Positions 1 through 33,161 of a DNA stretch of 64,000 bases are shown piece after piece; position 1 is the first letter of the stretch, and each line of letters starts with the position of its first letter. The notes beneath the pieces are model-generated. The model was given only the letters and a program-made list of their open reading frames with translations. It was not told where the DNA came from and did no database searches. The stretch is from a virus. Its lineage: Duplodnaviria > Caudoviricetes. Location of the stretch: IMG/VR virus record IMGVR_UViG_3300041964_000148, one strand, 5' to 3'. Position numbers and translations under genes: made by a program.

Positions 1-3000
1 GACTATTGGGCTGGATTTAGCCAAACGTTTGAGACTCACGTTGTCCCTGCCCTGAACGCACTAAAACCTCACCTAGACGAGTTGAGAGAGGGCTTCCAAG
101 GATTTACAGAGCGACTACAGGCCGCGCTTTCTCCCTTAATAGAGAGATTTGGTCAAATCACATCTCAAGTTCAAGATTTTATTCAAAGGATTCGAGCGGC
201 AAGGGAACCTATAGACGCAACAGCAAATTCCGCTGTCAATTTAGGTGATTTGCTAGCACGGGGATTAGCCGGTGCCATATCGACAATCGAGCGAATGTCC
301 CCCGCTATTTCAGTTGTTCTTAAGATATTAGGAAACTTAACGATTGGCTTTTTGGAATTAAGCGATCGCATACTTGCTGGGCTTAGTCCGGCTCTATCCA
401 CCATTAAAGAGCTTGCCGATAAGGTATGGCGATTTGGCAACGCCTTTACAGAGGTATTTGGAGCTGCCGTTGCTCCGGCAGCCAAGGAACTACTTCCGGT
501 TCTTAAGAAGCTACTAGCTATTTATGGGCGAGTGCTTGCGTTATCTGCTGCCCTTCCCTTTGGAATGATCGCTGGTGGCTTGGCTGGAGTCGTGGTTTCC
601 ATGAAGGCGCTACTGAATTTATTTGAGCCAATGAATCAACGCACGAAGGAACTCTTAACTTCCTTCAGTAGCGCACAAGATATGGGGAAGGCATTTGGGG
701 AGATTGTCGGCAATTCCATTTCGGGAGTAATTAATACCTTAAAAATTCTCCTGGAAGTGGCGGCTACGGTGGGTGATACCTTGACGGCACCACTAAAGTT
801 CATTGATGCCGCATGGGAGAAAACGGGAAATGCGATCGGGGGAGTTTTAGGGCGATTAAAGCGACAAGCAAAGGGCGCTGGGAAAGGATTTCAGGGGGAT
901 CTCTCTGAGGCGTCTCCTGGTCCCACCTACTGGATACGCCAAAACTGGGCGAAGACAGGGGACTTTGTGAGCAATCAGATAAAAGAGATGGCATCGACAG
1001 CCAAGACCCAGGGGAATGGCATGAGGCAATCGCTAGAAAATGTCATGGGAGGGGGCGACGCATCTACAAATATATTTCGATTTGCCCAGCAAAATGGAAA
1101 CAAGGCACAGCTCGTATCTATTTATGAACAAATGGAGGCAATGAGGCGAGCCGGCGCACTTGAGCAGCAAATCCGAGAAAAGCACCAAGCTGGCTTATTG
1201 TCTGACGCTAGGGCTGAAAAGCAAATAATGAAACAGAGGCAGCTAGGGCAAAAAGCACACCTAGCAATGATTAACACTGTTAGGGAGATCCAGACTTCGG
1301 CTAGGGAGAGAGAAGCTTCGGCTGCCGGAGCAACTCAGGAGCGAAATCAAAAGTTAGCCAACAGCTCAAGGGGGCTTTTCCTCAGTATGGGTTCTGCCCT
1401 ATCTAACTTCGCTCCACAACTTGCAACACCTCTATTCATGCTCAACGACTTTGTAGATCTTTTCATAGATCTCAAAGATGTACTTCCCCAAATCCGAGCA
1501 TTGTTTGGAGCGACAGAAGCGGCAACAGCCGCTAATGCAGCGACAACGAGTGCTGCTAATGGAGTAATTGCAGCGTCAGAAGGAACCGTGACGGCGGCAG
1601 CCGCGAGTTCAGCAGCAGCCCAAGTCCAGGGCTCTGCGGCATCTAGTGGAGCAGCAATAGGGGAAGCTGCCGTTGTTGGGGGAGCTAATAGCTTTATGGC
1701 AACGACTTACGGACTCCTAGGGAGGGCAGCTCAATCGGCTTACGCCAACATGATTAAACCCCTGATTCCTCTACTTCCCTGGATATTAGGTGTGTCTGCT
1801 GCACTATTCATTCTCTATCAAGGTTTCAAAAATAATTTCTTAGGCATAGGGGAGGCGATCAAAGGAGTTGGCGGCTTTATTAAAGAGTTTTTCGATTTAC
1901 TGCTTGGTGGAGTATGGCAAACAATTGCCTCGATCTTTCTCAATATTGAGGTTCAAATCAGTGCTATCGGTCGCACACTTGGTCGGGTCGGTCATATTTT
2001 AATGGAACCGTTCCGCCCACTCTTGGCGGCATTTGGTGTTTCTGGACAACGCTCTCTGTTGGGGAATGCAATGGTCGTGACGGTCAATTTGATCCTCCTT
2101 CCTTTAAAACTAGTTGCAGGAGCAATTAATCTCATCATTAGCCTCCTCAGTGGCTTTATTCAAGGCGTAATTCTAGTTGGGGGAATCATCCTCAATTTCA
2201 TCCTGCTCCCTATTCGGTTGATCAACGCCGCGATTTACGGCGTCATGATGGGCTTCAATTCTGTGATGCTCGGTGTCAACCAAGCGGTCAACTTATTACT
2301 TCTTGCCCCTCTAAATATCGCCACGGCTGTTGCCTACAAGATTGCCAACGTAATCGCAAAAATAGGGCGAGTAATTACTGCCTTCATTCTTTCTCCCTTC
2401 TTTGCCGTCCAAAATGCCATCATGAGGGCGATCAGCCCTGTGGTGGATTTTGTCTTTAAAGCAATTGGATTGATCGCAGGGGCAGCAGCTCTAATTTTCA
2501 CCATCTTAAATCCAGGGATGGTAATTGGGACGTTCTTTGCCTTCGTCACTGGGGCAACATTAGCGGCAAAAGCAATTCGATTCACATTAGGGATTCCACT
2601 TAAAGCTATCGGTTTCCTGTGGCGAAACACGTTAGGAAAGATGGCTGCTGCGGCAGTGACAGATTCGACAGTGGTAGGTGGAGCCAATACGTTCATGGCG
2701 ACAACGTATGGGTTATTGGCAAACGCTGCACGATGGGCATATAAACAAATCTTGATGCCATTAATGCCTTTGCTCCCACTAATCCTAGCCGTCGTGGCAG
2801 TTCTCGGTCTTCTTTACTTGGGATTTAAGACCAATTTCTTGGGCATTGGTGATGTGATAAAGGGGTTTATAGGAGGGTTCTTACTGGTATTTGATGTTGT
2901 TTGGGGCGTAATTAAAGGAATAGGGGATGCGATCTCCCAGGTATTTGGTAGCCTGATAACTTCGGTTGGAGAAATCTTTGGGGCATTAAAAGAACTAGCC

Positions 3001-4362
3001 GGGGCTATTCTTGCTCCCTTCGACGCTTTATTCGGACTGTTTGGAGGAAATGGTGCCGGGGGTGGGGGATCACTTGGAGAGGCAATCAGTGCTACTGTCG
3101 GTTTTATTCTAATTCCCACTAAGTTTGTTGCCGATGCCCTTTCGTTAGTGATTCGGGGGATAACATCCCTGATTGTGGGAGTTATTAGGCTAGGAACAGC
3201 AATCATCAATAGCATTTTCCGACCCATCACCAGTACGTTAGGATTCCTTTCTCCTGTAATGGGAGTAATTCGGACAATTATTGGGGCGATCGGAGGGGTG
3301 GCATTAGGGATTGCGGCTCTAATCGGCTTGATTGGTTTTCTCGCTACTACCCTGATTCCGTTAATAATGACCGGAACCGCTATGCTATTTGGGATGATCG
3401 TATCGGGCATGACGTTCCTGATCTCTGCTGCCCTGCCTGCGTTAATCAGCGGCTTATTAACAGTTGCAACGGTTGTCATTCCCTTGCTGGTCAGCGCATT
3501 CTTGTTTGTCTCAACTGTAGCTATCCCAGGCATTATTAGTGGATTAACTGCGATCGCTACAACAGCTATCCCACTGGTAATGACTGGCTTGTCTGCTGCC
3601 ATTCCCTTTATCATCGCTGGGTTTGGCTTCATTGCGGCGACAGTTATTCCCGCCATAGTTGCTGGAGTAATGTTCATTGCAACCGTCGCCATTCCCGCTA
3701 TGATTGCAGGAATTGCCGGACTTGTAACTGCCGCCATTCCACTACTCATAACCTTTTCTCCAATAATCCTGATGGTTCTCGCAGTTGTCGCTGCGGTTGT
3801 CCTCGTTAAATTAGCTTTCGATGCTGTCGTTGGGGCAATACAGAAAGTCATTCAGGGAATAGCGAGTGCAATCAGCTCAGTTGGGCAATTTTTCCAAGCT
3901 CTGCCCTTGATCGGAGGATTATTTGGAGGACAAAAAAATAATGCGGGCGATGGTTCCAACATTCAGGAATTCGCCGGTGGAGGTTTAGTCCTAGGGCAAT
4001 CCGCTCAAGCTGTCCCGGTGATTGCTCACGCGGGGGAATTTGTCATGACCGAATCGGCAACCCAGGCTAACCTAGGAATACTGCAATATCTTAACGCCGG
4101 AGGGAAATTAGCATTACCTGCCCCTAACGTTGGGGTAATGCCACCCATGCCCTTAAGGTTGCCGACTCCAGCCGCAGCCCCAGCGCAGGGGGCAGGAAGT
4201 GGGGCTGTGGTGATCGAAAATGTCAACATCAACTTCGAGGTACAAATTAATGCCAACAATGGAGTCGAGGCAGGGGATGAATTCTTGAGATATATCGAAG
4301 ATCCAAGGTTTAAAAAAGCAGTAAGACAAGTGTTAAGAGAATCAGTTGAAAGGATGAAGTAA
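1..4362 (+). CDS. Phage tail tape-measure protein, 5'-truncated by the window edge
   Basis: The frame is open from base 1 (DYWAGFSQTF...) into the 1426-aa ORF. Long Ala/Gly/Ile-rich amphipathic sequence with internal repeats and a C-terminal FAGGGLV...VPVIAHAGEFVM motif typical of tape measures. Confidence 0.85.
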   Translation, partial: DYWAGFSQTFETHVVPALNALKPHLDELREGFQGFTERLQAALSPLIERFGQITSQVQDFIQRIRAAREPIDATANSAVNLGDLLARGLAGAISTIERMSPAISVVLKILGNLTIGFLELSDRILAGLSPALSTIKELADKVWRFGNAFTEVFGAAVAPAAKELLPVLKKLLAIYGRVLALSAALPFGMIAGGLAGVVVSMKALLNLFEPMNQRTKELLTSFSSAQDMGKAFGEIVGNSISGVINTLKILLEVAATVGDTLTAPLKFIDAAWEKTGNAIGGVLGRLKRQAKGAGKGFQGDLSEASPGPTYWIRQNWAKTGDFVSNQIKEMASTAKTQGNGMRQSLENVMGGGDASTNIFRFAQQNGNKAQLVSIYEQMEAMRRAGALEQQIREKHQAGLLSDARAEKQIMKQRQLGQKAHLAMINTVREIQTSAREREASAAGATQERNQKLANSSRGLFLSMGSALSNFAPQLATPLFMLNDFVDLFIDLKDVLPQIRALFGATEAATAANAATTSAANGVIAASEGTVTAAAASSAAAQVQGSAASSGAAIGEAAVVGGANSFMATTYGLLGRAAQSAYANMIKPLIPLLPWILGVSAALFILYQGFKNNFLGIGEAIKGVGGFIKEFFDLLLGGVWQTIASIFLNIEVQISAIGRTLGRVGHILMEPFRPLLAAFGVSGQRSLLGNAMVVTVNLILLPLKLVAGAINLIISLLSGFIQGVILVGGIILNFILLPIRLINAAIYGVMMGFNSVMLGVNQAVNLLLLAPLNIATAVAYKIANVIAKIGRVITAFILSPFFAVQNAIMRAISPVVDFVFKAIGLIAGAAALIFTILNPGMVIGTFFAFVTGATLAAKAIRFTLGIPLKAIGFLWRNTLGKMAAAAVTDSTVVGGANTFMATTYGLLANAARWAYKQILMPLMPLLPLILAVVAVLGLLYLGFKTNFLGIGDVIKGFIGGFLLVFDVVWGVIKGIGDAISQVFGSLITSVGEIFGALKELAGAILAPFDALFGLFGGNGAGGGGSLGEAISATVGFILIPTKFVADALSLVIRGITSLIVGVIRLGTAIINSIFRPITSTLGFLSPVMGVIRTIIGAIGGVALGIAALIGLIGFLATTLIPLIMTGTAMLFGMIVSGMTFLISAALPALISGLLTVATVVIPLLVSAFLFVSTVAIPGIISGLTAIATTAIPLVMTGLSAAIPFIIAGFGFIAATVIPAIVAGVMFIATVAIPAMIAGIAGLVTAAIPLLITFSPIILMVLAVVAAVVLVKLAFDAVVGAIQKVIQGIASAISSVGQFFQALPLIGGLFGGQKNNAGDGSNIQEFAGGGLVLGQSAQAVPVIAHAGEFVMTESATQANLGILQYLNAGGKLALPAPNVGVMPPMPLRLPTPAAAPAQGAGSGAVVIENVNINFEVQINANNGVEAGDEFLRYIEDPRFKKAVRQVLRESVERMK
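1672..2865 (+). repeat. Internal 65-codon duplication in the tape measure (1672-1866 and 2671-2865)
   Basis: VVGGANSFMATTYGLL...GFKNNFLGIGEAIKG versus VVGGANTFMATTYGLL...GFKTNFLGIGDVIKG. Confidence 0.9.
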
Positions 4363-4364
4363 TA

Positions 4365-5507
4365 ATGGACAACTATCGGTTAACTCAGGCTCGGATACAA
4401 TGCAATGCCATCCAAGTTCTATTGCTTGCAGAAACCAAGGAATATGATGCTGGTTGGCTACCCCAGGCTAAATCAGTACTAAGAGACGAAAGTGGAAGAT
4501 TCGCTAGTAAAGAGGGTAGCTTCAAAGAAAAAGCAGAAGCTCTCTACAAAGAAGATGTTAAGCGCCATAATCGCGAATTTTCCAAGAAAGAATTTGCTAA
4601 ATATCTAAACTCTGTTCCTGCACATTTAGAAGCAGCCAAAGATTATGTTTTTGGGACTAGTTACAAGCAGAAAGTTGACGATTTAAGCAAGAAGTTAGGA
4701 GAGCTTGGGGTCGAACTGAAGAAAATCGCAACAAAGAAGTACAAAGAATTTGAACCCAAGTTAAAGGAGATGAAAGGGGAAGAGTTTGAACAGGCTGTTC
4801 AGGATGAATTAATTAAACTCAAACTTATAAACGAACGAACGTTCAAGGAAGACTTAAGGGAAGCTAAAACTGCCGAAGACATCAAAAAAATAATAAACCA
4901 ACATCAGGCAGAAATCATGAATGCTGCCATTATTGTTGGACGGGCAGTCGCGCTATCCGCTGGCGGATTAGCCGGATGGACTTTAGGAATTGTAGCTGGA
5001 GAAGTCCTGGTATCTGCAATATTTGGAGGGACAATACCAGCCTTTGCTACCATGTTCAATCAGGCGTTAATTGTTTGGGGAATTGAGGAAACAGCCCAGC
5101 CTGTTGCTGCTTATTTAATTGACAAGAAAGTTACTGACAAAAAATTAAACAAAGAGTACAAAAAATGGGCAGAGTTTGGGGTTGATGTGCTTGCTATTGT
5201 GATGGGTCAAAACCTCGCACAGATCATAAAAGTAGCAGAAGAAAAAGCTACGTTCAAAAAGGGTATGCAAATAGCTCAAAAGGTTATGGAAGATAACGCC
5301 AAATTGATGGCAGAACACGAAAAAAGTATCCTAACGAAGGTAGGATTAGACAAACTGCCAAAAGACTTTGATACCTTAGAAAGTGCTTATAAATCAGCAA
5401 TGAAAAAGGCGGCGGAACAGGGCAATTCCTTAGAGAAAGAGCTGTCAGAAATTAATAAGATCAAGCAAGCATACAACGACATTCGTAGAAGGCTGTTGGA
5501 ACAGTAA
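4365..5507 (+). CDS. Leader-family paralog 1 (putative virion-packaged protein with hydrophobic hairpin)
   Basis: N-terminal KEYDAGWL...RDESGRFA, a charged helical region, a hydrophobic segment at about aa 185-240, and a coiled-coil tail. Starts 2 nt after the tape-measure stop. Confidence 0.65.
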   Translation: MDNYRLTQARIQCNAIQVLLLAETKEYDAGWLPQAKSVLRDESGRFASKEGSFKEKAEALYKEDVKRHNREFSKKEFAKYLNSVPAHLEAAKDYVFGTSYKQKVDDLSKKLGELGVELKKIATKKYKEFEPKLKEMKGEEFEQAVQDELIKLKLINERTFKEDLREAKTAEDIKKIINQHQAEIMNAAIIVGRAVALSAGGLAGWTLGIVAGEVLVSAIFGGTIPAFATMFNQALIVWGIEETAQPVAAYLIDKKVTDKKLNKEYKKWAEFGVDVLAIVMGQNLAQIIKVAEEKATFKKGMQIAQKVMEDNAKLMAEHEKSILTKVGLDKLPKDFDTLESAYKSAMKKAAEQGNSLEKELSEINKIKQAYNDIRRRLLEQ

Positions 5508-5508
5508 T

Positions 5509-6409
5509 ATGTCAAATCAATATGAATTAGCTCAAGCTCGAATTCAAACACTTCAGATTCTTGTGGTTGCCGAAGCCAAGGAATACGATGCTGGTTGGCT
5601 AGACGGAGCAAAAACAATCTACCGAGAGGGAGGGCGTTTTGCTTCCAAGGGTTCTGGGGAAACCCAGGACAACCCTATTATTAGCAAAATCTCTGAGTCA
5701 ATAAGGCAAAATGCCGAGAAACAATTTGCCTCTCTCACGCCAGAGAAGCAGAAAAAGGCAAAAGAGGAGCTTAAGACTATTAATGATGGTTTTAATGAAC
5801 TTGCCGATGGCATTGACAAGATGTCGCCAGAGGAGCAGGAGGAGTTACGGAAGTTCCTCGCTTCTCCGGATGTTAAACAGGTGCGAGAAGAAGTGGCGAA
5901 GTTGTTCGACTCAGTTGACAAAAAGGCGGGAAAAGCATTCCGGCAGGTAGACGCGAAGATTGATAAGGAACTCAAGGGACCTGGAACTCTTGGTAAGGCG
6001 ATGAAGCGTATTCAGGCGATCGCCAATGATGTTATGGAAGGGGTGAAGGAGAATCCAGAGATTGTCGTAGGCGCCGCTATCAGTGCAGCGTGTCTTGTCG
6101 CTGGGGGAGCGGGAGCTGTTGCCCTTTTTAGCTTGCCGAATCTATTTTCCGTGGGGGGCGTATGGGGTGGACTAATAGCAATAACTGAGGGAGCAACGGG
6201 AAGCGCGAATCGCACAAGCGTTTGCGGCTGGTGGCTTGTCTCAGCTTGGATTTTCTGCCTCCGCTTATCTTGTTTCTTCTGGGCTTAGTAATCTTGTTCT
6301 GGATGCGACGATGCTCCTTAATAAGGATATTCGCGAGGAAATAAATCAGATAAAGGTTGAAAATGAACGCATAGCGAAAGAAAGTTTAGCAAAGCAATTT
6401 TCATTTTAA
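5509..6409 (+). pseudogene. Leader-family paralog 2, frameshifted at about 6208 (or a sequencing error)
   Basis: N-terminal KEYDAGWL...REGGRFA. Removing one A from GCGAATCGC (6205-6213) restores the frame through IAQAFAAGGLSQLGF...AKQFSF to TAA at 6407-6409. Confidence 0.7.
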
Positions 6410-6433
6410 ATCACGGAGAACCGTGACATAGAA

Positions 6434-7855
6434 ATGCTCAATCCATATGCGATCGCCGAAGCCCAATCTACATCCATTCTCTTAGAGTCTGCACTTAAGG
6501 AGTATGCAGCCGATTGGCTCAAGAACACTGAGAGCGTGATGCGGGATGAAACCGGGAAGTTTGCCAAGAAGGCGGCTTCCGTGGGTCAAAGTGCGTCCCA
6601 GGCTAAAGAATCTATTGAAGAGGCAGTTAAGAACCCCCAGGAAGCGAAGCGGAAGGTAAACAGTGAGTTACTTAAACTCACGGCAAGGGGTTTGGATAAA
6701 CTTGTTCAGAAGTACCCAGAATTTACTGACCAACTCCTAGACAAGATGCTTGGGCTTGACGCTCAAGAGGCACGGGACAGGTTGGCAGATGAGTACGGAC
6801 GCATTAACCCAGGATTGCCCAACGCCATCAGACCAGACCCATTGCCCGTACCCCTGAAGGAGACCCTAGCAGACATCCTCAAGAAGATAGCAGCAGACAA
6901 GGGAAACCCCAAGGAGTTGGCTAAAGACCTCCAAAAAGCATTTGAGCTATTGGGGGAAAACTACAACGATTTAATTGACGACCTCAACAATGTGGAGAGT
7001 GAGTCAGAGGCGGTTAAGCTCCTAGGGAAGATTGCGGCTACTTCTATTCCTATTACTGCCTATCTTGCTATCGCCCTTACTCCTGAAGTTGCAATCGGAC
7101 TTCTACTTGGGGATAGTTTATCAACCATCCTTGTATCGACAGTAGCTAGCGAGGCTGTTAGTTTTGCTGCCAACAAGGGAATGGACAAGATGGATGTGAA
7201 CAACCCTTGGGTGAGAATAGGGGTTGAATTGGCAATCGGGATTGGGGTTGGAGGGGCTGTTAGTACTGGGGCAAAACAGCTAGAAAATGCCAAAACAGCA
7301 GAAAAAATTGGCGCATTTGCGGACAAGAAGGTTAAGTTACTTCGTCGCAAAGCCGAAGCGACATTTAAAAAGGTCAAATCCGGCGGCAAATCTTCTATGG
7401 AGATTCCAGATTTCCCTCCTATTCTTAAGCAGAAACCAAAAGGAATTCCTGATGACATCGAGTTTGACCAAACACCTTATGGCACAGGCTTGAGATTTGA
7501 GATAGAGGGCAATAAAGTATTACTAGGTCTTGGTGATGATGGGGTAGTAGGCTTCAAGATCAATGACAAGTTTGACATGGATGAATCTCTCGCCGACAAC
7601 GTAAAAAGACGGGCGGCTGTTAAGTTAACTAAGTTATTTAAGTCATCTGTTGCAGAGATGGAAGAAGGGAAGATTCTGTGGTGCAATATCCATGACAAAG
7701 ATGGAGTAAAAGCAGCAGATCGTAGATTTAAAGCTTATAAGCTTATGGGTTTTGGAGACAAAGTTGAAAACTCTGTATACGGTATAATTAAGGAAGGTAA
7801 ACTTGTACCTTACAAACCTTCTGCGGAGGATTTAAACAAACTACATGGTGACTAA
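6434..7855 (+). CDS. Leader-family paralog 3 with a unique C-terminal alpha/beta domain (candidate effector)
   Basis: KEYAADWL...RDETGKFA. The first ~185 aa are highly similar to 8073..10061; the C-terminal ~150 aa are unrelated. Confidence 0.65.
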   Translation: MLNPYAIAEAQSTSILLESALKEYAADWLKNTESVMRDETGKFAKKAASVGQSASQAKESIEEAVKNPQEAKRKVNSELLKLTARGLDKLVQKYPEFTDQLLDKMLGLDAQEARDRLADEYGRINPGLPNAIRPDPLPVPLKETLADILKKIAADKGNPKELAKDLQKAFELLGENYNDLIDDLNNVESESEAVKLLGKIAATSIPITAYLAIALTPEVAIGLLLGDSLSTILVSTVASEAVSFAANKGMDKMDVNNPWVRIGVELAIGIGVGGAVSTGAKQLENAKTAEKIGAFADKKVKLLRRKAEATFKKVKSGGKSSMEIPDFPPILKQKPKGIPDDIEFDQTPYGTGLRFEIEGNKVLLGLGDDGVVGFKINDKFDMDESLADNVKRRAAVKLTKLFKSSVAEMEEGKILWCNIHDKDGVKAADRRFKAYKLMGFGDKVENSVYGIIKEGKLVPYKPSAEDLNKLHGD

Positions 7856-8024
7856 AACAGATGCCTATTCTTTATCAGGAGAAGAGGAGGACTACTGGCT
7901 TGAAGCTGTAGTCAACAAGTCAGAAGAGGAAGTAGAATCATTAATCAACGCTCTCCCTCCTGACAAGCAGAAAGCGGTTAACGCACTAATAGCCGAAACA
8001 TTTTTTCCTAAAACAAAAGATTAA
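7845..8024 (+). CDS. 59-aa acidic protein overlapping the paralog 3 stop (candidate immunity protein; absent from the ORF track)
   Basis: ATG at 7845 to TAA at 8022-8024, MVTKTDAYSLSGEEEDYWLEAVVNKSEEEVESLINALPPDKQKAVNALIAETFFPKTKD. It fills the gap up to the terminator exactly. Confidence 0.65.
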   Translation: MVTKTDAYSLSGEEEDYWLEAVVNKSEEEVESLINALPPDKQKAVNALIAETFFPKTKD

Positions 8025-8087
8025 AATCTCCGCTTCAACAGCGATAATGCTAGTTGAAGCGGAGATTTTTTTATGCTTAATTTTTAT
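8023..8087 (+). repeat. Hairpin plus gene-start element, copy 1 (copy 2 at 11310-11372)
   Basis: AAAATCTCCGCTTCAAC...GTTGAAGCGGAGATTTT followed by ATGCTTAATTTTTAT. Confidence 0.85.
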
Positions 8088-10061
8088 ACATTTGCTCAAG
8101 CTCAATGTGTCTCAATACTTTTAGAGGCAGCACTTAAGGAATACACGGCGGATTGGCTCAAGAATGCCGAAAGTGTTGTGCGGGACGAAACGGGTCGATT
8201 TGCTAAGAAAGCAGCTTCCGTCGGTCAGAACGTCTCTCAGGTCAAGGAATCTATTGAAGAGGCGATCAAGAACCCCCAGGAAGCCAAACGGAAGATTAGT
8301 AGCAAATTGCTTAAACTTATGGCAAAGGGGTTGGATAAATTAGTCCAAAAATACCCAGAATTTACTGAAAAGCTCCTAGACAAAATGTTTGGCTTGGATG
8401 CTCAAAAAGCACGAGACAGGCTAGCAGATGAGTACGGACGGATTAACCCAGGACTTCCCAATGCCATCAGACCTGACCCCCTGCCCGAACCTCTAAAGGA
8501 GACTCTGGCAGACATTCTCAAGCAAATGAAGGCACACAAGGGAGATCCCAAAGCACTAGCCAAAGACCTTCAAAGGGCATTTGAGCTTGCTGGGGAAAAC
8601 TACAACGAATTAATAGATCAACTCAATAACAACCTGAGCAACAACGATCGCGTACAAGACTTCATTAAAACACTGGGAAAAATAGCCTCTGCATCTATTC
8701 CCCTTTCCACCTTCCTCGCATTCACACTAGGACCAGAAATCGCGCTCGGACTACTGATGGAAGAAGGATTGGCTACGATCATAACGAACACTGGTGTTGG
8801 CGTAACGTGGAATTTTGTTGCGGATAAAGCATTGGAAGCGGCAGATATCGAAGATCCGTGGGTGCAAGGGGGAGTTCATTTAGCTGTTTCTGTAGGTGCG
8901 ACCACAGGGATGATGGACTGGCGAGGATTCTATCGTGCAGGGGTTCCAAAGTCAGCCAAGTTAGCCAAGGAGGCGGCAAAACAGGTTGATGTTCCGTCCG
9001 ATCTGCTGGGGGCAGAAGCCGTTACCTTTGTTACTGGAGGTATTGGGGACGTAACAGGAGATACGGCAACTACGATTGCGTCCGGACTGGAACAACTAAA
9101 AAAAGATCCCAAGATACTTGGGTTTAAGTCCCAATACTTCGTTCCAAATACTAAGAGGGAGTTTGTAACTCAGAACCCTGGAGCAATCCCAAATCTAGCC
9201 ACATTTACTAAAACCCTTGTTCAGAAAGGACGTAATCCTGATGCTGTCTCACTTGCAGCTCAAATAGCGGCTTGGCGTCAGAAACATCCCCTCATTCCAA
9301 TCACTTCAACTGGATATTCGGGTGGAGGGCTAATTAATCGAGAATGTGACGCAATCTTAAAAGAGATGGGCATAAATGACGTTAAGTTCGTTAATGTAGG
9401 AACCCCGGATCTGGGAATGTTCCCAACTAACAAAGCAATTCATATTAGTAGTCCTAACGATGAACTCAATGTCTTTAGTCCTAAAAATGCTCAACTTGTT
9501 CCTTCTGTTAAGAGCCATAAAAGCTATTACGAAGACCCTGAATTCTTTTTGACCCTTGATCGAGCTTTACTAGATAAATCAAGCCATGACTTGCTTAAAC
9601 GAACAGAGGTATTATCTGGGTCAGAAGAGTACCACGCATTTAGGAAAGCAATAAAATCCGATCAAGTTAATTTTGATCGGATTCTTGCCAAAGGAGAAGA
9701 ATTGTCAGAGGATGTCTCTAATAAATTCATATCTACGATGGGGGAATTTATAGATAAATTCAACCTTCCACTTGCTCAATTAGAAAAAGATATTACAACC
9801 AGTACAACTTCTAAAATTAACAAGGATTACCTAAGCCGAGGAGTAGGCGATCGCTTCAATGATCTAGAAAATGCTGCATCTAGACTTGTGGATATCCTAG
9901 AAGCCAACCTTAGTCTTCAGCCTCAAGAAGCTGGGGTTGTTTCCTCTAAAGTGCAAGCAATTGTCAGCCAACTCAATGAAATCGCCCAAAATATCAAAAA
10001 GATTGATGGAAATCCCCAGATTATCGAACAAATTGAAGGAATATTAGAAGATATTGTTTAA
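8073..10061 (+). CDS. Leader-family paralog 4 with a C-terminal alpha/beta-hydrolase (lipase-like) domain
   Basis: KEYTADWL...RDETGRFA leader. Nucleophile elbow GYSGG at 9312, then VNVGTP, SPND (Asp) and HKSYY (His), in Ser-Asp-His order. Confidence 0.7.
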   Translation: MLNFYTFAQAQCVSILLEAALKEYTADWLKNAESVVRDETGRFAKKAASVGQNVSQVKESIEEAIKNPQEAKRKISSKLLKLMAKGLDKLVQKYPEFTEKLLDKMFGLDAQKARDRLADEYGRINPGLPNAIRPDPLPEPLKETLADILKQMKAHKGDPKALAKDLQRAFELAGENYNELIDQLNNNLSNNDRVQDFIKTLGKIASASIPLSTFLAFTLGPEIALGLLMEEGLATIITNTGVGVTWNFVADKALEAADIEDPWVQGGVHLAVSVGATTGMMDWRGFYRAGVPKSAKLAKEAAKQVDVPSDLLGAEAVTFVTGGIGDVTGDTATTIASGLEQLKKDPKILGFKSQYFVPNTKREFVTQNPGAIPNLATFTKTLVQKGRNPDAVSLAAQIAAWRQKHPLIPITSTGYSGGGLINRECDAILKEMGINDVKFVNVGTPDLGMFPTNKAIHISSPNDELNVFSPKNAQLVPSVKSHKSYYEDPEFFLTLDRALLDKSSHDLLKRTEVLSGSEEYHAFRKAIKSDQVNFDRILAKGEELSEDVSNKFISTMGEFIDKFNLPLAQLEKDITTSTTSKINKDYLSRGVGDRFNDLENAASRLVDILEANLSLQPQEAGVVSSKVQAIVSQLNEIAQNIKKIDGNPQIIEQIEGILEDIV

Positions 10062-10066
10062 ATACA

Positions 10067-10096
10067 TTGACATTGTGATAACAAGTAACTTATAAT
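10067..10096 (+). promoter_or_regulatory. Sigma70-type promoter
   Basis: TTGACA-18 nt-TATAAT, both hexamers perfect, upstream of 10139. Confidence 0.8.
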
Positions 10097-10138
10097 AGTA
10101 GAGTAAAGGTAAATAAAGCAAAACCAAACCAAACCACC

Positions 10139-10714
10139 ATGTTTAACTACATCAAAAATCTCCTCAACACTACTTCCGAAAACGTTGTTGTCGTTCGCGA
10201 CTTAAGTGTTGCAGCGGTAAAAGAGGTAGCTCCCGCTACATCCACATTCCTGGAAATCCAGAGTGGCAACAGCGCGAACTTCAACTCTGACACGCTGCTA
10301 CAAATGACATTGCAAGAGGTCGGTAGCAGCATCAAGAAAACGTCCGAGGAGGCGTGGTACGCCATTGTGGCGGACACACGAAAGGTTGACCGCCAGATTA
10401 CCAAGTTACTCGAAATGAATAACCTTGGCGGTCAGGAAATGAAAATGTTCCTCTACTTTGGCGGTGGCGCGATCGCGACCTACCACTTGTCCTTATGGGC
10501 AGCGTGGGTAATCGCGATCTTGTCCCTGCTAGGTTTCCTGGCAGGGCTGATCTTGTCATCCCTAGTGCAACTAGGCGGACAAGTAGCCGCATACCTCCTA
10601 ATTGGAGGCTTGTTTGCGGTTAGTCTCAACGCAATAATTGACGATATCATCCAGTTTGTTTCTTGGATCAGTGATTCCAATGAAACTAAAGATCATGAGT
10701 TGATCGTCGCATAA
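10139..10714 (+). CDS. Membrane protein (about 3 C-terminal TM segments) in its own transcription unit
   Basis: Hydrophobic aa 103-175, with its own promoter and terminator. Confidence 0.6.
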   Translation: MFNYIKNLLNTTSENVVVVRDLSVAAVKEVAPATSTFLEIQSGNSANFNSDTLLQMTLQEVGSSIKKTSEEAWYAIVADTRKVDRQITKLLEMNNLGGQEMKMFLYFGGGAIATYHLSLWAAWVIAILSLLGFLAGLILSSLVQLGGQVAAYLLIGGLFAVSLNAIIDDIIQFVSWISDSNETKDHELIVA

Positions 10715-10718
10715 ATCG

Positions 10719-10750
10719 AATCCCGCTCCGGGTATCTGGAGCGGGATTTT
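10719..10750 (+). terminator. Intrinsic terminator
   Basis: AATCCCGCTCC-loop-GGAGCGGGATT followed by Ts. Confidence 0.7.
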
Positions 10751-10930
10751 GCGTTTCAGGATCACAGATCTCTGATCTGAAGGAAGTAATAGAGGGCAAT
10801 CACACTAAATCCACAAATAAACCCAGAAATTAGCCCAAAATCCCAAAATATATCCATTTTGCGTCGAATTTACTTGACTTTAGTGTTATAACATGACATT
10901 ATAGATATAGAACAAATATTTACAAAAAAT

Positions 10931-11311
10931 ATGAATATCAAGCAGTCGCTGGTTCGTGCCAGCTTTTTTCTTGGCGTAATGAGCGCAATTGCACTCCGTA
11001 TCGGAGTGTGGCTTTTACGACGAAGGACAGATGCAACGATTGCAATCATCCAAACAAAGACCATCTGTGCCCTCTTGCTGGGCGGGATAGCCCTCTACTG
11101 GCATCTCGACACCCTTGGGGTGCGGGTGCAGTCGTGGTTCGATGTTACTTGGCTCCGCCTTCAGTGGTGGAACCAAATAGAGAACCTCCAATACGAAATT
11201 GGATGGAAGTCATTCCTAAGTTACTGGGACGGCTTCTCTACCGGAGCCGGATGGGGACTACTTCTCGGCGCAGGACTAATGTTTGTCCTGATGCGCCGCC
11301 AAAACACCTAA
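10931..11311 (+). CDS. Small Trp-rich membrane protein
   Basis: Three hydrophobic segments; TTGACT-17-CATTAT upstream (10874-10902). Confidence 0.55.
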   Translation: MNIKQSLVRASFFLGVMSAIALRIGVWLLRRRTDATIAIIQTKTICALLLGGIALYWHLDTLGVRVQSWFDVTWLRLQWWNQIENLQYEIGWKSFLSYWDGFSTGAGWGLLLGAGLMFVLMRRQNT

Positions 11312-11372
11312 AAACTCCGTTTCAACAGCGATAATACTGTTGAAACGGAGTTTTTTTATGCTTAATTTTTAT
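11310..11372 (+). repeat. Hairpin plus gene-start element, copy 2
   Basis: AAAAACTCCGTTTCAACAG...CTGTTGAAACGGAGTTTTT followed by ATGCTTAATTTTTAT, which here reaches a stop within a few codons. Confidence 0.85.
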
Positions 11373-11406
11373 CCGTTCCCTTAATCGCAATTAGTTAGAT
11401 ATATAA

Positions 11407-13179
11407 ATGCCCAATACAACCAACCCGATCGCACCCACCAACCCGACGCCCACCAATCCGACATCGACCAGTAGTACACCCGCGACAAACTCTAGTACAA
11501 CTGCGATCACACCCGTAAAACCGAAGGCACCCCCACCCCAAAAGCAACCTATTGAAACCCTTCCAACTAAGAAAGCGACTTTAACCAAGCAGGTTTTTGA
11601 CCCTAGATTTGGGGCAAGTTATGCTCCACTAGAGATCAGATTTCTAACCGGAGCCTGTGCAGATCAACTATTAGATTTAGGGTTTAATATCCAAGACTTT
11701 TCCATGTCCCAAGCCCAAAACTGGGAAAAAGGGAAAGGGCAAACAATTCAGGTAGGGCATAATTTTGATAACGTCTCACCGTGGACGTTTAACCTTAATT
11801 GGCAATATTGGGGCTTGTGGGAGGACGTTCATCAATTGGCAGCCCTCTGCCAACATATGGGAACGATTGACCCTAAATTATCTACACCACCCAAACTACA
11901 GTTTACCTTCGGCGAAGCCATAATTGACCCTGTTGTTTGCACCAACATAGATATTAAATTTGATGCCCCGCATCCAGGAAGTAAAGGGATGCGCCATGCA
12001 ACTGTGACGGCAACCTTTGAACTTGAAGCTGGGAAAGGGACAAAGCATCAGCTTTCTCCACCTTTAGCCCCGAATGCCCTAAGCGATCGCATCCGAACCC
12101 TGACTGAAACAGAGCGAGAGCGTCAAGGGCTAATCGGAGTTACCCGCACCTCACTAGCCCCTTGCCTGGGTAAGAAGGGAAGCGAGAATGTCGCAAAGCT
12201 GCTGAAGGACAACAAGCTTGGGGATGAGGCGACCTTGCAGGCATTAGATGCCAACACATTCGTCCAATTGGCAGTAGCGGGAACGATTCCTAAAGAAACC
12301 TTGGCTAAACCACAGTTCCAGGAGAAGCTTAAGCGTGATCTAGCGTTCCGTATGGCGAAAACTGAAAACGGAACAACTCCAGCCACCTCAGAGCAGCTTG
12401 CTCGCGCACTAGAAAGTGGCGATCCATTTGGTCTTCCCGAACAGTTCACGTCTACGCAACAGGACAGGCGCGTGGACGAGAAGGGAGTAGAAACGACTAA
12501 AGAAAACACCTTGTTTGGAAGGATATCAGGAGATTACCAAGCCGCTCTCACCGCCATCAAAGACCAAAAACTAGCTGCCAACGATGACGTATTTAATCCC
12601 GTAAAAAATCCCACAGCCCAAGGGCGACTTACCGCCGCAGCAGGATGTGGGTTGGACTTAAGGAATAACGGAGCGCCTAAGATCGCTAAAACTGAAGGGA
12701 AAGATGCCGTATTAATTTCAGGAATTAACCAGGCGATCGCAGGCACAAAGTCTGATGAAGAGTTGAAAAAGTTGTTCAACCTGCCCGAAAACACCCCAGA
12801 TACCGTACTTCGGAAGATTAAAAATGGGGTACCTTATCAATCTAAGGATGAGTTCCTCGCCAGGTCATCGTATAACCAAATGGGCATTACGGGTCATTCG
12901 CTTTGGAGCAGTTTTGACGCGCATGAGTCGGCACAGCTCACTGAGGTCAACAAGTTTTTAACTCAAGAGAATCTTAGTGATGACGACCTAAAAAAAAGAT
13001 TTGGGGTAGGGGATGATATTGCCAAAAAACTCCGCAATAATGGCAAACCGTTTGCTTCTAAAGAGGAGTTTTTGAAGGCGTCATCCCCTAATTCAACTGG
13101 AATAGATGGGAAGGGGAACCAGGTATGGCTCGACTTTGAACGGAATGTTGATAAAGTCAAGACGGCAGAACAGCCCTAG
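11407..13179 (+). CDS. Putative tail tube-initiator/baseplate protein with two C-terminal helix-hairpin-helix-like repeats
   Basis: Pro/Thr-rich leader. Beta-rich domain ending PPKLQFTFGE...VVCTNIDIKFD...ATVTATFE, resembling contractile-tail tube-initiator folds. Repeats ending NGVPYQSKDEFL and NGKPFASKEEFL. Confidence 0.5.
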   Translation: MPNTTNPIAPTNPTPTNPTSTSSTPATNSSTTAITPVKPKAPPPQKQPIETLPTKKATLTKQVFDPRFGASYAPLEIRFLTGACADQLLDLGFNIQDFSMSQAQNWEKGKGQTIQVGHNFDNVSPWTFNLNWQYWGLWEDVHQLAALCQHMGTIDPKLSTPPKLQFTFGEAIIDPVVCTNIDIKFDAPHPGSKGMRHATVTATFELEAGKGTKHQLSPPLAPNALSDRIRTLTETERERQGLIGVTRTSLAPCLGKKGSENVAKLLKDNKLGDEATLQALDANTFVQLAVAGTIPKETLAKPQFQEKLKRDLAFRMAKTENGTTPATSEQLARALESGDPFGLPEQFTSTQQDRRVDEKGVETTKENTLFGRISGDYQAALTAIKDQKLAANDDVFNPVKNPTAQGRLTAAAGCGLDLRNNGAPKIAKTEGKDAVLISGINQAIAGTKSDEELKKLFNLPENTPDTVLRKIKNGVPYQSKDEFLARSSYNQMGITGHSLWSSFDAHESAQLTEVNKFLTQENLSDDDLKKRFGVGDDIAKKLRNNGKPFASKEEFLKASSPNSTGIDGKGNQVWLDFERNVDKVKTAEQP

Positions 13180-13646: not shown

Positions 13647-13905
13647 TGTCGTGAGCTTGGTGTGTTACATATGTTGTTATATTGTAACCTTTCAAAGTGT
13701 GTGTGAACACAATTGCTCATCATCATCTTCATGTTGTCGTATATCGTAGGCGATCGCATAGCTGAAGCCGATTAATGACAAAATCCAAAAGAAACAAACC
13801 CCTTTGGGTATATGCCGGGGTTTTTTGCTTGATCACGGTTCTCCGTGACGAAGGTCTACACGTCATCCTTTGTTACAATGAGGTTATATAGCACAAAGCA
13901 AAGCC

Positions 13906-15132
13906 ATGTCACAACCGAAAGAAGGTGATGCTGTACTAGGAGGAACACCCCCTTTGCAGCCCAACTCAACAAGCCTTGTCCTGGGCGGATTCTATGCCGT
14001 GCAGCGAAAAATCAAGGCGCAGGAAGAAGACTTAACCGAAGGCGATATCAAGACAGTGATCGCACATAAGTGCCGCAACTATGATGAGCTTCTGGTAAAA
14101 ATCAAATTTTGGCAGGAGTATTACGAGTTTGAGGGATTAGACCTGGACGAGTCATGCTTAACCGAAAAGGAAGTAGCGATCGCAATTGCCAATGGGGCAA
14201 GGAAATCGTTCTACCTTAATGTTGAATTCCTGACCCATGATCGGGAGTTGGTCAAAAAACAAGAACAGCGACGGGTTAAGAAGTTAAAGGACTTCACATT
14301 CTCCCGTTACTGTCGCCGAGACTTGATCCAAAAAGCAGTCCTTGAACTTGCTGACAAAAACATAAGCAGAGGAGAGGTGCGCCAAAAGGTGACGGAAAGT
14401 CATTGCTCTTGGCAATCCCATTATTGGATGATAAATGATACGCGCTCAGTTGTATTTGATTGGAAAGGCACTGATGATTTACAGAAGGTTATCTCGACAA
14501 GCCTAGGAAAAATTTCCCGAAAGTACGGATTGCCAATTAGCTTAGTTTTTGGCTACAGCCAACTACTAAGGGACTTGGCAACAATTGATACCTCTCGGAC
14601 ACTTTTGAGGAGATTTACTTTGCTAGATTCTCTGTTGTGTTTAACAACAACTATCCTCTACCCCTCCGACTTAGAGCCATTTGACCCAAGGGTATTAAAT
14701 ATACCAAGGTCATTGCTTTGGAAAAGTTGGATTTTGAATGAAAAGGGACACGAGGTGCAAGTGTCTTTGGATGTAAGAATTCCTCTGAATAGTGTGTATT
14801 TTGGTGGGGCTATACCTAGCGTAATCATTTTTGAGGTGTTCAAAAAAGCGATGGCATATGCGATCGCACTCCACGCTGCCCACCGAGACACGGCTACCTA
14901 CAGTCTTAAAAATCTGGAGCAGAAACTAGGTATCTGGAACCTGCACAAGGCGAAGGAACCCCTAGCTGCACAGGTAGCAGCCGTCCTGCCAGCATTGCGA
15001 GACATTATTGATCTGATAATCGCTGATTTCAAGAAGCAGGTTGAGGATGGCGACGACTCGCCAGCAATCCCTGTTGATCAAATTGAGAGAGTCGAACAAG
15101 ACTTGGGGTTTGTTAAACTAACATTAATCTAA
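13906..15132 (+). CDS. Hypothetical protein with an N-terminal DAVLGG motif
   Basis: 408-aa ORF with an AAAGCAAAGCC leader; starts MSQPKEGDAVLGG...LVLGG. Confidence 0.7.
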   Translation: MSQPKEGDAVLGGTPPLQPNSTSLVLGGFYAVQRKIKAQEEDLTEGDIKTVIAHKCRNYDELLVKIKFWQEYYEFEGLDLDESCLTEKEVAIAIANGARKSFYLNVEFLTHDRELVKKQEQRRVKKLKDFTFSRYCRRDLIQKAVLELADKNISRGEVRQKVTESHCSWQSHYWMINDTRSVVFDWKGTDDLQKVISTSLGKISRKYGLPISLVFGYSQLLRDLATIDTSRTLLRRFTLLDSLLCLTTTILYPSDLEPFDPRVLNIPRSLLWKSWILNEKGHEVQVSLDVRIPLNSVYFGGAIPSVIIFEVFKKAMAYAIALHAAHRDTATYSLKNLEQKLGIWNLHKAKEPLAAQVAAVLPALRDIIDLIIADFKKQVEDGDDSPAIPVDQIERVEQDLGFVKLTLI

Positions 15133-15141
15133 CCAAGCGTG

Positions 15142-15239
15142 AAAAAGCCCCTCCGGGTATTAAACCGGAGGGGCTTTTTTGTGAACATAAAGGCGTATGA
15201 GCAACAAAAAACCCTCGACAGAAATGTCGAGGGTTTTTT
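15142..15239. terminator. Two bidirectional terminators between convergent genes
   Basis: AAAAAGCCCCTCCGG/CCGGAGGGGCTTTTT and AAAAAACCCTCGACA/TGTCGAGGGTTTTTT. Confidence 0.8.
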
Positions 15240-15270
15240 GTTGCCTAATCAACGATCAGGCGGGGGAGAT

Positions 15271-16275
15271 TTATCGGAACGCGCTAACGATTTGCTTCAG
15301 CGCTTGTTCAGACTTGTTTCGCTTAGAGCCAAGCCACAGGGAATTTATATGCCCTGCGTTGCCACCTCGTTGGGTACTGTGGTGACTTTGATACTCTGTG
15401 ACGGCTTGGGCTAGCCCCCAAGCCGTGTGGTACGCGCTTAACATCTCAGATCCCTTCCCCTTACCTTGGTAAAGTTCTAAGACTTGTTGTACAGCGCGTG
15501 GTTGCTCATCCAAGGACTTATCCTTGTCCCCCAAGATCTTAATGATCAGGGCGTGGGCTTCCTCGTCCTTAACGGGTGTTGAGGCAAGGAATTCAGCATC
15601 CTCTTTGAATTTCTCGAAGCCAGTTTTGGCTTCCTCCAGTACCAGCATTACGCGGGCACTAGAGTAGGCAGAGGTGTGGGAAATTACCTGTCCCGCCAAC
15701 CTTACGGGTAGCACCATTTGGTTTGTGCATACCATCCTTGGCGCCATCAGGTCAACTTTTGCTCCACGTCCGCTTTCGTGGGAGTTCGTGAAAAGGAGCT
15801 TCCCTTCTACTACGTCACCTCCCGCAAGCGTGAAGCTTTCGTTAGTTTTGGCAACACAGAAAACTGTGCGCCCTTGGTTTAAGAATCCCAATCGTTCCAT
15901 GACCAACTGCGATTTCTCGCAGAAGGTCACGAAACTTTTTACGATATCTCGGTTCTGGAACGGTTTCCAGCGAAGGGAAACCGTATCCAGGTGAATCACT
16001 TCACCTGGCTTGTTGGGGTTGTCACGGTAGACAACGCGATCCCGGCTTGACTGGAATTGGTAATTTTCGCCAAATTTAATTCCATCGGTGGTGTGGACTT
16101 CCCAGTCTAGCTTCGCCTTTTGGAGAAGCCCATCTATATCGTCTTCGCTGACAACAGCATCGACTGCTGCGCCAATCCCACGATATAGCTTTTTATTGGT
16201 TTCACTGGTTTCACTCAGGTTTTGGGTCCACTGAGTTTCTTGACCGTTTCTTCTGATGGTATTTGCTAAAGACAT
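15271..16275 (-). CDS. DUF932 family phage/plasmid protein
   Basis: LDWEV, PFQN, NSHESG, RMVCTNQ and TAWGLAQAVTEY motifs. Confidence 0.85.
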   Translation of the reverse strand: MSLANTIRRNGQETQWTQNLSETSETNKKLYRGIGAAVDAVVSEDDIDGLLQKAKLDWEVHTTDGIKFGENYQFQSSRDRVVYRDNPNKPGEVIHLDTVSLRWKPFQNRDIVKSFVTFCEKSQLVMERLGFLNQGRTVFCVAKTNESFTLAGGDVVEGKLLFTNSHESGRGAKVDLMAPRMVCTNQMVLPVRLAGQVISHTSAYSSARVMLVLEEAKTGFEKFKEDAEFLASTPVKDEEAHALIIKILGDKDKSLDEQPRAVQQVLELYQGKGKGSEMLSAYHTAWGLAQAVTEYQSHHSTQRGGNAGHINSLWLGSKRNKSEQALKQIVSAFR

Positions 16276-32366: not shown

Positions 32367-33161
32367 TCACGAAGATACGTAATTTGCCCCAGACTGTTGA
32401 ATTTTATCGGCTAGCCAATCATCGCCCTCGAACGTATTCCAGATAGGCTCCAAGTTCTCTCCTATCCCAGGAAGGAAAATACCGTCCTCCTTCTCTGGTC
32501 GAACGTATTTAGTTAAAAAGTCAACAACCCAGTGGCGATCTTTACCTTTCTTCTTGTCTATTTTGTTGAAGCGTTCAACGCGCCAAATAGCGCCTTCAAC
32601 AGGATCTATTGCGCCATGTCCTGAGGTAGAGATTGCCTCAATAGCCGACTCGACACTAAGAGGATCACCCATCTGGATTAGTCTTGGCATCACGAACAAT
32701 CCGCCCACTCGCTTATCAAATTCTTCAAAATTGAGGCGAGTACAATTGCCTGACATAATGTCAAAAGCGACAAAAGGTTCGTGAGGCAATGCGTATCTCG
32801 TGCTGTGGGCTTGGATCAGCCATTCCCCACACAGACGCTCACCTTCACCCAATACTTCAAGAAATCGCTCCTGATGAAAAAATACCCATTCAGCGAACAG
32901 AGAGTGCTGTAGGTAGGGAGAGGTGGAGGCTAGGAAGCCTAATCGCTGAACGGGATGGATTTTGCCATCTAGCTTTAAAACACCTGTGTTACTACCATCG
33001 AGCTTCTCCTGGATCAGTATTCGGTCATACTCATCTCTCGCTTTCTCGGTAGCTATCCTTTGCATTCCATCATTGATCTTGCGATCGCCTGTTCCCATCC
33101 GGGAACCTTGGATGTGACCGATGGAACCGTAGTTCTTCCCTTCAAGTATTTTCGATTGCAT
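32367..33161 (-). CDS. ATP-dependent RNA ligase family protein
   Basis: Nucleotidyltransferase motifs EKLDGSN, GEWL, FVAFDI, EGAIWR and KYV. Confidence 0.85.
   Translation of the reverse strand: MQSKILEGKNYGSIGHIQGSRMGTGDRKINDGMQRIATEKARDEYDRILIQEKLDGSNTGVLKLDGKIHPVQRLGFLASTSPYLQHSLFAEWVFFHQERFLEVLGEGERLCGEWLIQAHSTRYALPHEPFVAFDIMSGNCTRLNFEEFDKRVGGLFVMPRLIQMGDPLSVESAIEAISTSGHGAIDPVEGAIWRVERFNKIDKKKGKDRHWVVDFLTKYVRPEKEDGIFLPGIGENLEPIWNTFEGDDWLADKIQQSGANYVSS

Follow-up and report, generated by a model that had tools for sequence, protein, structure and literature searches.

Four tandem genes with a common leader

The DNA analyzed here, referred to as the window, is the whole 64,000-nucleotide (nt) stretch of IMG/VR record IMGVR_UViG_3300041964_000148 (Duplodnaviria; Caudoviricetes). 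We focused on the locus at 4365–11372, in which four tandem paralogous genes follow the 3' part of a giant tail tape measure gene and are themselves followed by two membrane-protein genes (Table 1). The four paralogs (4365–10061) have a common N-terminal leader of ~55 amino acids (aa), with the pattern KEYxAxWL...VxRDxxG[RK]FA, and unrelated C-termini. A four-way alignment contained 17 invariant leader columns within the first ~50 residues, first KEY.A.WL and then R.E.G.FA.K. When a hidden Markov model (HMM) of the leader was run on the six-frame translation of the window, the four paralogs scored with E-values of 3e-25 to 4e-20 and nothing else scored, so the similarity is not due to chance. 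Behind the leader and a linker, every paralog has a hydrophobic segment near residues 185–240. A first-pass annotation, made from the sequence of this stretch, had described this arrangement of shared leader, linker, hydrophobic segment and unrelated C-termini beside the tape measure gene; all of its open reading frames (ORFs) exist, and the alignment and HMM search support its account.

Paralogs 3 and 4 are 75%–85% identical over aa 1–160 and 52%–60% identical over aa 160–237, and are unrelated past ~aa 280, which agrees with the similarity followed by divergence noted in that annotation. Paralogs 1 and 2 are without an enzymatic domain. Frame 0 of paralog 2 ends at 6288 in an odd Cys/Trp-rich tail, and the +1 frame is open from ~6190 to 6409 and resembles the hydrophobic and coiled-coil tail of paralog 1. 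Because of the odd tail and the open +1 frame, we consider that paralog 2 probably carries a frameshift or indel near 6190–6236.

The leader is strongly conserved and was predicted, at low confidence, to form a helix plus a hairpin. The ORF at 1–4362 was identified as a tape measure gene by family homology together with its position in a tail module. Only 3 nt separate its stop from the start of paralog 1, and 2 nt lie between paralog 1 and the start of paralog 2. We considered a derivation of the shared N-terminal module from the tape measure protein and dropped it, as the best phmmer E-value was 0.03, which is not significant homology. A megablast search with window positions 4000–12000 against phages and plasmids gave no match.

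Table 1. Features of the locus and its surroundings, in window coordinates
Feature	Position	Strand	Description
Giant tail tape measure gene, 3' part	1–4362	+	PHROG tape measure families, E 1e-9 to 5e-6; 31% identical to an 8170-aa protein annotated as tape measure in Nostoc pC052_F
Paralog 1	4365–5507	+	380 aa; leader aa 1–50, helical linker, hydrophobic segment aa 184–227, coiled-coil tail, no enzymatic domain
Paralog 2	5509–6288 as annotated, probably on to 6409	+	259 aa as annotated; leader, linker, hydrophobic segment aa 189–207
Paralog 3	6434–7855	+	473 aa; leader, linker, hydrophobic segment aa 196–237, C-terminal GNAT-like domain aa ~332–473 (nt 7427–7852)
Acidic ORF	7845–8024	+	59 aa; start overlaps the paralog 3 stop by 11 nt
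Repeated boundary element, copy 1	8022–8087	+	Hairpin with T-run, then start ATGCTTAATTTTTAT of paralog 4
Paralog 4	8073–10061	+	662 aa; leader, linker, hydrophobic region aa ~205–280 (segment aa 211–229), predicted alpha/beta hydrolase aa ~300–520 (nt 8970–9632), helical tail
Sigma-70 promoter	10067–10096	+	Perfect consensus TTGACA-18-TATAAT, 5' of the first membrane-protein gene
First membrane-protein gene	10139–10714	+	191 aa; C-terminal transmembrane helices; moron-like
Second membrane-protein gene	10931–11311	+	126 aa; three hydrophobic helices; moron-like
Repeated boundary element, copy 2	11309–11384	+	Hairpin and start recurring at 11309–11372, also a bidirectional terminator; then relic leader start

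The leader family and its C-terminal domains

The leader belongs to a large family with diverse C-termini. We ran a leader profile of 65 positions, derived from 16 leaders in the window and in related loci, against 1.84 billion representatives, and it matched 141 protein clusters, 53 of them at E <= 1e-10. The leader lay inside the first 80 aa in all members analyzed (143 of 143), and a hydrophobic span between aa 60 and 340, about residue 200, was present in 83% (113 of 136). At least 120 residues follow the hydrophobic span in 66 members, and these C-termini sort into at least 26 similarity groups, 17 of which are singletons. The constant leader with swappable, partly enzymatic C-termini proposed for the window thus held across the family; invariant C-termini in homologous loci, which would have spoken against it, were looked for, and the C-termini proved diverse. 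In 28 of the 113 members with a hydrophobic segment, almost nothing follows it, and paralogs 1 and 2 are of this type; the N-terminal module thus also functions by itself.

The C-termini that could be assigned were mostly of enzymatic or adaptor types. A search with paralog 4 returned proteins sharing only its first ~280 residues, with HipA-like kinase, thioesterase/lipase, ADP-ribosyltransferase or TPR C-termini. Among 102 members we found Pfam matches to ADPrib_exo_Tox, Pkinase, Lipase_3, GNAT, DnaJ and TPR, and most members had no domain match. The ADPrib_exo_Tox scores were 36 and 74 bits (cut-off 23.4), and HipA_2 and Thioesterase were also among the C-terminal Pfam domains.

No model in Pfam, PHROG or NCBIfam covers the leader or the N-terminal module. 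A tblastn search with the leader against 50,697 GenBank phages gave nothing significant (best E 6), and the only carrier among 72,556 plasmids was pC052_F of Nostoc sp. C052. By these searches the leader family is undescribed, in keeping with the earlier remark that it matched no recognized system, and its ~140 clusters come from uncultured phages plus one Nostoc replicon.

Parts of the leader also recur outside this one-leader arrangement. P0041, a metagenomic protein of 3149 aa on a contig of 33,887 bp, carries ASIDPxxIVRDxxGRFATK (or ELHPRDxGKFA) nine times at module borders, every ~250–490 residues; the modules between the repeats are partly homologous and have no Pfam domain. From its sequence, P0041 looks like a polyprotein whose modules all open with the latter half of the leader. 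In P0128, a similar motif is repeated four times, followed by a HhH-GPD-like region. Because both proteins repeat the motif, they suggest that the RDxxGRFA element may be a reusable short docking or processing motif. On the contig of locus L007, two further ORFs (414 and 475 aa; 8663–9907 and 2936–3058 on the minus strand) match just the RDxxGRFA half of the leader profile, and partial or degenerate leader tags may exist. We also considered RDxxGRF as a MuF-associated motif and rejected it, since papers on MuF and polyvalent proteins (PMC5576092, PMC5512222) do not mention it and the MuF domain is absent from the relatives.

The C-terminal region of paralog 4 is predicted to have a lipase-like alpha/beta hydrolase fold. 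Its residues ~300–520 align with 11 homologues around a nucleophile elbow of the form G-[YH]-[SC]-[GA]-G, here GYSGG (Ser416), followed by Asp463 and His482. This Ser-Asp-His triad, called in the first-pass annotation, is conserved across the 11 homologues, some with Cys for Ser, and has the order seen in alpha/beta hydrolases. The ESM Atlas model of paralog 4 matches lipase-type hydrolases (TM 0.55–0.68), so that GxSxG motif, Asp, His and predicted fold all agree with this class. Paralog 4 itself had no Pfam match, and its homologue P0012 had Thioesterase and Lipase_3 matches just under the Pfam cut-offs. In about half of the hydrolase homologues (L003, L008, L012, L014, P0027 and P0031), Cys replaces the nucleophile Ser (GYCGGG, SHCGAG), and Asp and His are kept. 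Searched alone, the hydrolase domain had no stand-alone homologue of 132–422 aa. Hydrolase domains of the paralog 4 type occur three times in gp047/gp048, hypothetical proteins of Aphanizomenon phage CL131 (L001, 11363–13620), directly upstream of the tape measure gene.

The last ~140 residues of paralog 3 were modelled with AlphaFold together with eight homologues, at a pLDDT of 78 overall and 85–95 in the domain. When this domain was compared with 48,161 chains using VIA-align, the best 50 were all GNAT acetyltransferases, with middling Z-scores of 6.3–7.3 (below 8), ~100 residues aligned and a root-mean-square deviation of ~3 Å; weak Foldseek rows were mostly GNAT too. A Y-x-x-x-G-F motif is present, and the acyl-CoA pyrophosphate-binding loop Q/R-x-x-G-x-G/A is not clearly conserved. 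Because of the middling Z-scores and this loop, we grade the predicted domain as GNAT-like and not as a proven acyltransferase. It had no Pfam match and no relative in IMG/VR, and it is present in eight other clusters. The structural comparison of the C-termini that had been proposed as a check thus pointed to a GNAT-like domain in paralog 3 and a lipase-type hydrolase in paralog 4. Sequence searches of the Protein Data Bank with both C-termini and the two downstream membrane-protein ORFs found nothing.

Small genes, cassette boundaries and related loci

We examined the small genes of the locus as possible partners of the leader proteins. Statements on neighboring genes rest on the loci that were fetched, which are a minority of family members and include none of the other GNAT-type members. 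The first-pass annotation had read the locus as an effector/immunity array, and the 59-aa acidic ORF overlapping paralog 3 is present as it described. Among 5.8 billion proteins, this ORF had one 98%-identical copy and nothing else in a word-based search, which is weak for short proteins. Because the GNAT-like domain recurs in other clusters and the ORF does not, we take the sequence result as evidence against a conserved partner, not as proof. The two membrane proteins had no homologue in any fetched related locus, including loci with the same hydrolase domain, and no match in Pfam, PHROG or NCBIfam. The related five-gene array of L003 has no interleaved small genes.

These results bear on whether the locus is a classical polymorphic toxin/immunity system, directed against competitors or superinfecting phages, with the 59-aa ORF and the two membrane proteins as cognate immunity. 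Such systems combine a constant N-terminus with a variable C-terminus, as here; ADP-ribosyltransferase, HipA-like and GNAT domains are known toxin types, the small ORF overlaps the paralog 3 stop, and membrane genes with their own promoter could be expressed in a lysogen. However, the candidate immunity genes are not conserved with their presumed toxins, related arrays run gene to gene with no small ORFs between, and TPR, DnaJ and payload-less members are not toxins. We consider this explanation highly improbable, and by sequence comparison with the fetched loci no dedicated immunity gene belongs to the system. Of the earlier interpretation, the polymorphic leader and payload therefore stood and the immunity genes did not; its proposed search with a leader HMM likewise recovered diverse C-termini and, in the fetched arrays, no coupled small genes.

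The membrane genes had also been described as self-promoted, which applies to the first, with its perfect consensus, and less to the second, whose promoter match is only 9 of 12. A strong, bidirectional terminator hairpin with a stem of 19–20 bp (11310–11355) closes the pair. The window also encodes a Rep_1 rolling-circle replication protein (35830–36876, minus strand; E 2e-80), in a low-GC stretch (37%), as well as an RNA ligase (32367–33161, minus strand) and a CoiA-like nuclease with an Mrr_N domain (26564–28180, minus strand). Given the perfect sigma-70 promoter, the terminator, the Rep_1 gene and the plasmid state of the Nostoc relative described below, the membrane genes look like a moron pair, that is, independently expressed accessory genes, from a resident element, and they may function in superinfection exclusion.

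Copies of the leader-gene 5' end, each with the hairpin and the ATGCTTAATTTTTAT start, flank the segment that holds the hydrolase gene and both membrane genes; the second copy encodes just MLNFYPFP before a stop. This bracketing fits exchange by recombination at the conserved leader, as do the divergence of paralogs 3 and 4 after 160 aa of 75%–85% identity and the relic leader start behind the cassette.

Related loci place leader genes with virion genes, in several arrangements. The replicon pC052_F of Nostoc sp. C052 (L002, NZ_CP040278.1, 223 kb) encodes an 8170-aa tape measure protein and then at once a 64-aa leader ORF and a 405-aa leader protein. Its gene order, tape measure followed by two leader ORFs, is the same as in the window, and its large terminase is 55% identical to that of the window. 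On the strength of the terminase identity and the shared order, pC052_F is, by sequence, a related phage-like replicon in a cultured Nostoc, and likely an episomal jumbo phage or phage-plasmid. Leader arrays also occur on IMG/VR and metagenome-assembled genome contigs from lake metagenomes, with seven copies in a 62-kb contig, four in an 85-kb contig and five side by side in L003.

In L005, a tail sheath gene (phrog_23, E 8e-13) comes first, with a gp19-like tube gene (below cut-off), a leader gene and a gpI-like baseplate gene after it in that order. L005 also has homologues of the tape measure protein and the GH19-like protein of the window, which therefore tie contractile-tailed relatives to its phage. 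Two leader genes follow a Tail_P2_I baseplate gene in L007 (41.5 bits, cut-off 20.6). The leader gene of L010 lies directly beside the large terminase gene, and in L003 the array follows a weak major-head-protein match. Paralog 3 was found on contigs of up to 245,281 bp. Near the leader genes of L007, on the 85-kb viral contig, lies a reverse transcriptase with an HNH domain (13821–15617; phrog_1423, E 1e-95), which resembles a group II intron protein.

The positions in L003 and L010 would suit another possibility, in which the leader proteins travel in the capsid and bear a propeptide that is cleaved off, as T4 internal proteins do: the helix would target the prohead core, a protease would cut after the Glu of KE-Y, and the protein would be ejected with the DNA. 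The E-Y of the leader is nearly invariant in 102 members, the polyprotein-like P0041 has its nine motif copies at module borders, and T4 internal proteins are a diverse set sharing only a capsid targeting sequence (PMC3012670). The first-pass annotation had pointed to LLE and LKE sites before KEY, but these are confined to paralogs 3 and 4; paralog 1 has LAE/TKE and paralog 2 has VAE/AKE. At the position two before Glu, the leaders have L, T, A, V, I or G, which departs from the T4 (I/L)-x-E rule. RDxxGRFA, the most conserved motif, would fall after the proposed cut, and leader genes lie mainly in tail or baseplate modules. In four relatives, one of them the complete Nostoc replicon, searches for S77/S78 prohead proteases (PF03420 among them) and DUF2213 were negative; two of these searches, that for PF03420 included, had silent controls. 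We regard capsid cargo as quite unlikely and the T4-like cleavage idea as weak on this sequence evidence.

Proposed carriage in the virion and likeness to known systems

The reading we favor, tentatively, is that a large contractile-tailed phage of filamentous cyanobacteria expresses these modular leader proteins late and carries them in its virion, likely in the tail, for release into the next host. From the observed architecture, family, C-terminal diversity, gene position and two C-terminal folds, we infer packaging, a loading site, membrane insertion and delivery along the following lines. The tag of ~55 aa, an amphipathic helix ending in KEYxAxWL and then VxRDxxG(R/K)FA, would dock or load the protein onto a conserved, putative virion component. 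Carried in the lumen or at the tip of the tail, the proteins would enter the next host at infection, where the ~150-aa helical linker and the hydrophobic hairpin at ~residue 200 may insert in the host membrane on ejection. The exchangeable, sometimes absent C-terminus would then act on the host; paralog 4 would supply a lipase-like hydrolase and paralog 3 a GNAT-like domain, and in relatives the payloads would be ADP-ribosyltransferases, kinases, DnaJ and TPR domains. Gene duplication, together with recombination at the conserved 5' end, could have generated this variety.

We base the idea of virion carriage on the architecture, the effector-type domains, the coupling to tail genes in several lineages, and an argument made for T4 Alt, namely that late synthesis of a host-directed enzyme pays off only when the enzyme travels on to the next cell (PMC5512222). 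Leader genes are placed with virion genes and reach high copy numbers on single contigs, the C-terminal Pfam domains are host-modifying enzyme types, and the hydrolase domain recurs three times beside the tape measure gene of phage CL131. Cofactor-dependent enzymes (NAD, ATP, acyl-CoA) that are encoded with virion genes and made late are therefore best explained as carried to the next cell.

Several observations weigh against virion carriage. AlphaFold modelling of full-length paralog 4 (14 sequences) was unusable, with a pLDDT of 46, so that the structures proposed for leader and hairpin are tentative. The position of leader genes differs by lineage (tail, baseplate, terminase, possibly head), so that more than one loading site is conceivable. 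No cultured phage in GenBank (50,697 phages) has the leader. The payload-less members could mean that the module may be mainly structural. In addition, a two-helix hairpin by itself does not explain how a C-terminal enzyme reaches the cytoplasm.

Leader proteins might instead be unpackaged late proteins, anchored by the hairpin in the producer's cytoplasmic or thylakoid membrane, with the leader as an oligomerization or regulatory domain and C-termini that act locally, in host shut-down, lysis timing or assembly. With such a hairpin, both termini would stay on the cytoplasmic side, a fitting place for enzymes that need cofactors; payload-less members exist, and the evidence for packaging is indirect. 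However, in several lineages the leader genes are tightly coupled to those for the tape measure, tube and baseplate, delivered effectors typically show the high copy number and fast C-terminal turnover seen here, and enzymes for host take-over, if made only late, would be left with little time to work. We consider anchoring in the producer unlikely.

The payload-less members are also relevant to a structural explanation, in which leader proteins are ejection or pilot proteins whose N-terminal module builds a trans-envelope conduit with the tape measure protein, the C-termini being envelope-degrading or adaptor accessories and not effectors. Many members, such as paralogs 1 and 2 and the Nostoc protein, consist of the N-terminal module alone, the composition is tape measure-like with weak PHROG tape measure and apolipoprotein-like matches, and the lipase-like domain could act on the envelope. 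Yet homology to tape measure proteins is not significant (best E 0.03, as above), and ADP-ribosyltransferase, kinase, HipA-like, GNAT and DnaJ domains require substrates from the cytoplasm and are without function in a conduit. We judge a purely structural function to be very unlikely.

Virion carriage could also be taken a step further, in a form that is possible but to which we give less credence. Here the leader would be an undescribed, portable virion-loading tag with a built-in membrane-translocation hairpin, by which contractile-tailed jumbo cyanophages inject exchangeable enzymes through the tail, as a phage counterpart of cargo loading in extracellular contractile injection systems (eCIS) and type VI secretion systems (T6SS). 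To our knowledge, how proteins are selected for delivery with phage DNA is understood in few models, namely T4 internal proteins, the MuF proteins of SPP1 and Mu, and the phiKZ-like inner body. In the leader family, a tag that is defined by its sequence is combined with C-termini of at least 26 kinds, within gene modules for the virion. Should this tag act as a loading signal, protein delivery by cyanophages becomes directly testable, and the family provides a candidate list of host take-over enzymes for bloom-forming cyanobacteria; the leader could also be used as a tag to package foreign proteins into phage particles. Such experiments are feasible, since Nostoc sp. C052, the host of a related replicon, is available as a pure culture.

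Several known systems resemble the leader family in part. T4 internal proteins and Alt are a diverse injected set that shares a short N-terminal targeting sequence, includes an ADP-ribosyltransferase and is encoded by late genes (PMC3012670; PMC5512222). However, the T4 capsid targeting sequence has 10–19 aa and ends in (I/L)-x-E, whereas the leader is ~55 aa long, bears different motifs and precedes a linker and a hydrophobic hairpin. In addition, leader genes lie in tail modules, and the four relatives searched had no T4-type protease, with the silent controls given above. MuF polymorphic toxins of temperate phages (PMC5576092) likewise combine a constant N-terminal part for virion association with a swappable C-terminal enzymatic domain, and the variable C-termini of the leader family correspond to this. 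In contrast to MuF toxins, the family has a hydrophobic hairpin and no MuF domain or conserved immunity gene; Phage_Mu_F (PF04233) was absent from the four paralogs, from 120+ family members and, in a search whose positive controls worked, from four related replicons.

The polyvalent proteins of phages and conjugative elements (PMC5512222) contain several host-directed enzyme domains that are predicted to be packaged and delivered, for which P0041 with its nine RDxxGRFA repeats offers a comparison. Leader proteins differ from them in having one domain per gene and a tag of their own, and no LPD, MuF or metallopeptidase marker domains were found.

Photorhabdus virulence cassettes (PVC), which are eCIS, load diverse effectors into a contractile tail-like tube by an N-terminal signal of 50–70 aa, with effector genes downstream of the structural genes (PMC11495950). 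The leader fits such a payload signal in length and gene position. PVC signals are disordered, weakly conserved and dependent on the Pvc15 ATPase, whereas the leader is strongly conserved and predicted, at low confidence, to be structured, and its carrier is a DNA-packaging phage with a terminase.

Effectors of the prePAAR class of T6SS have a constant N-terminal loading region with transmembrane helices, then a variable toxin domain, and are delivered by a contractile apparatus, much as the leader proteins may be. Unlike these, leader proteins have no PAAR or prePAAR by Pfam, and we saw no Eag-type chaperone or immunity gene. Although the family is a member of none of these systems, since it has no MuF domain, no conserved (I/L)-x-E and no PAAR, and its leader is conserved and not disordered, by analogy it would work like T4 internal proteins, MuF toxins and PVC payload signals.

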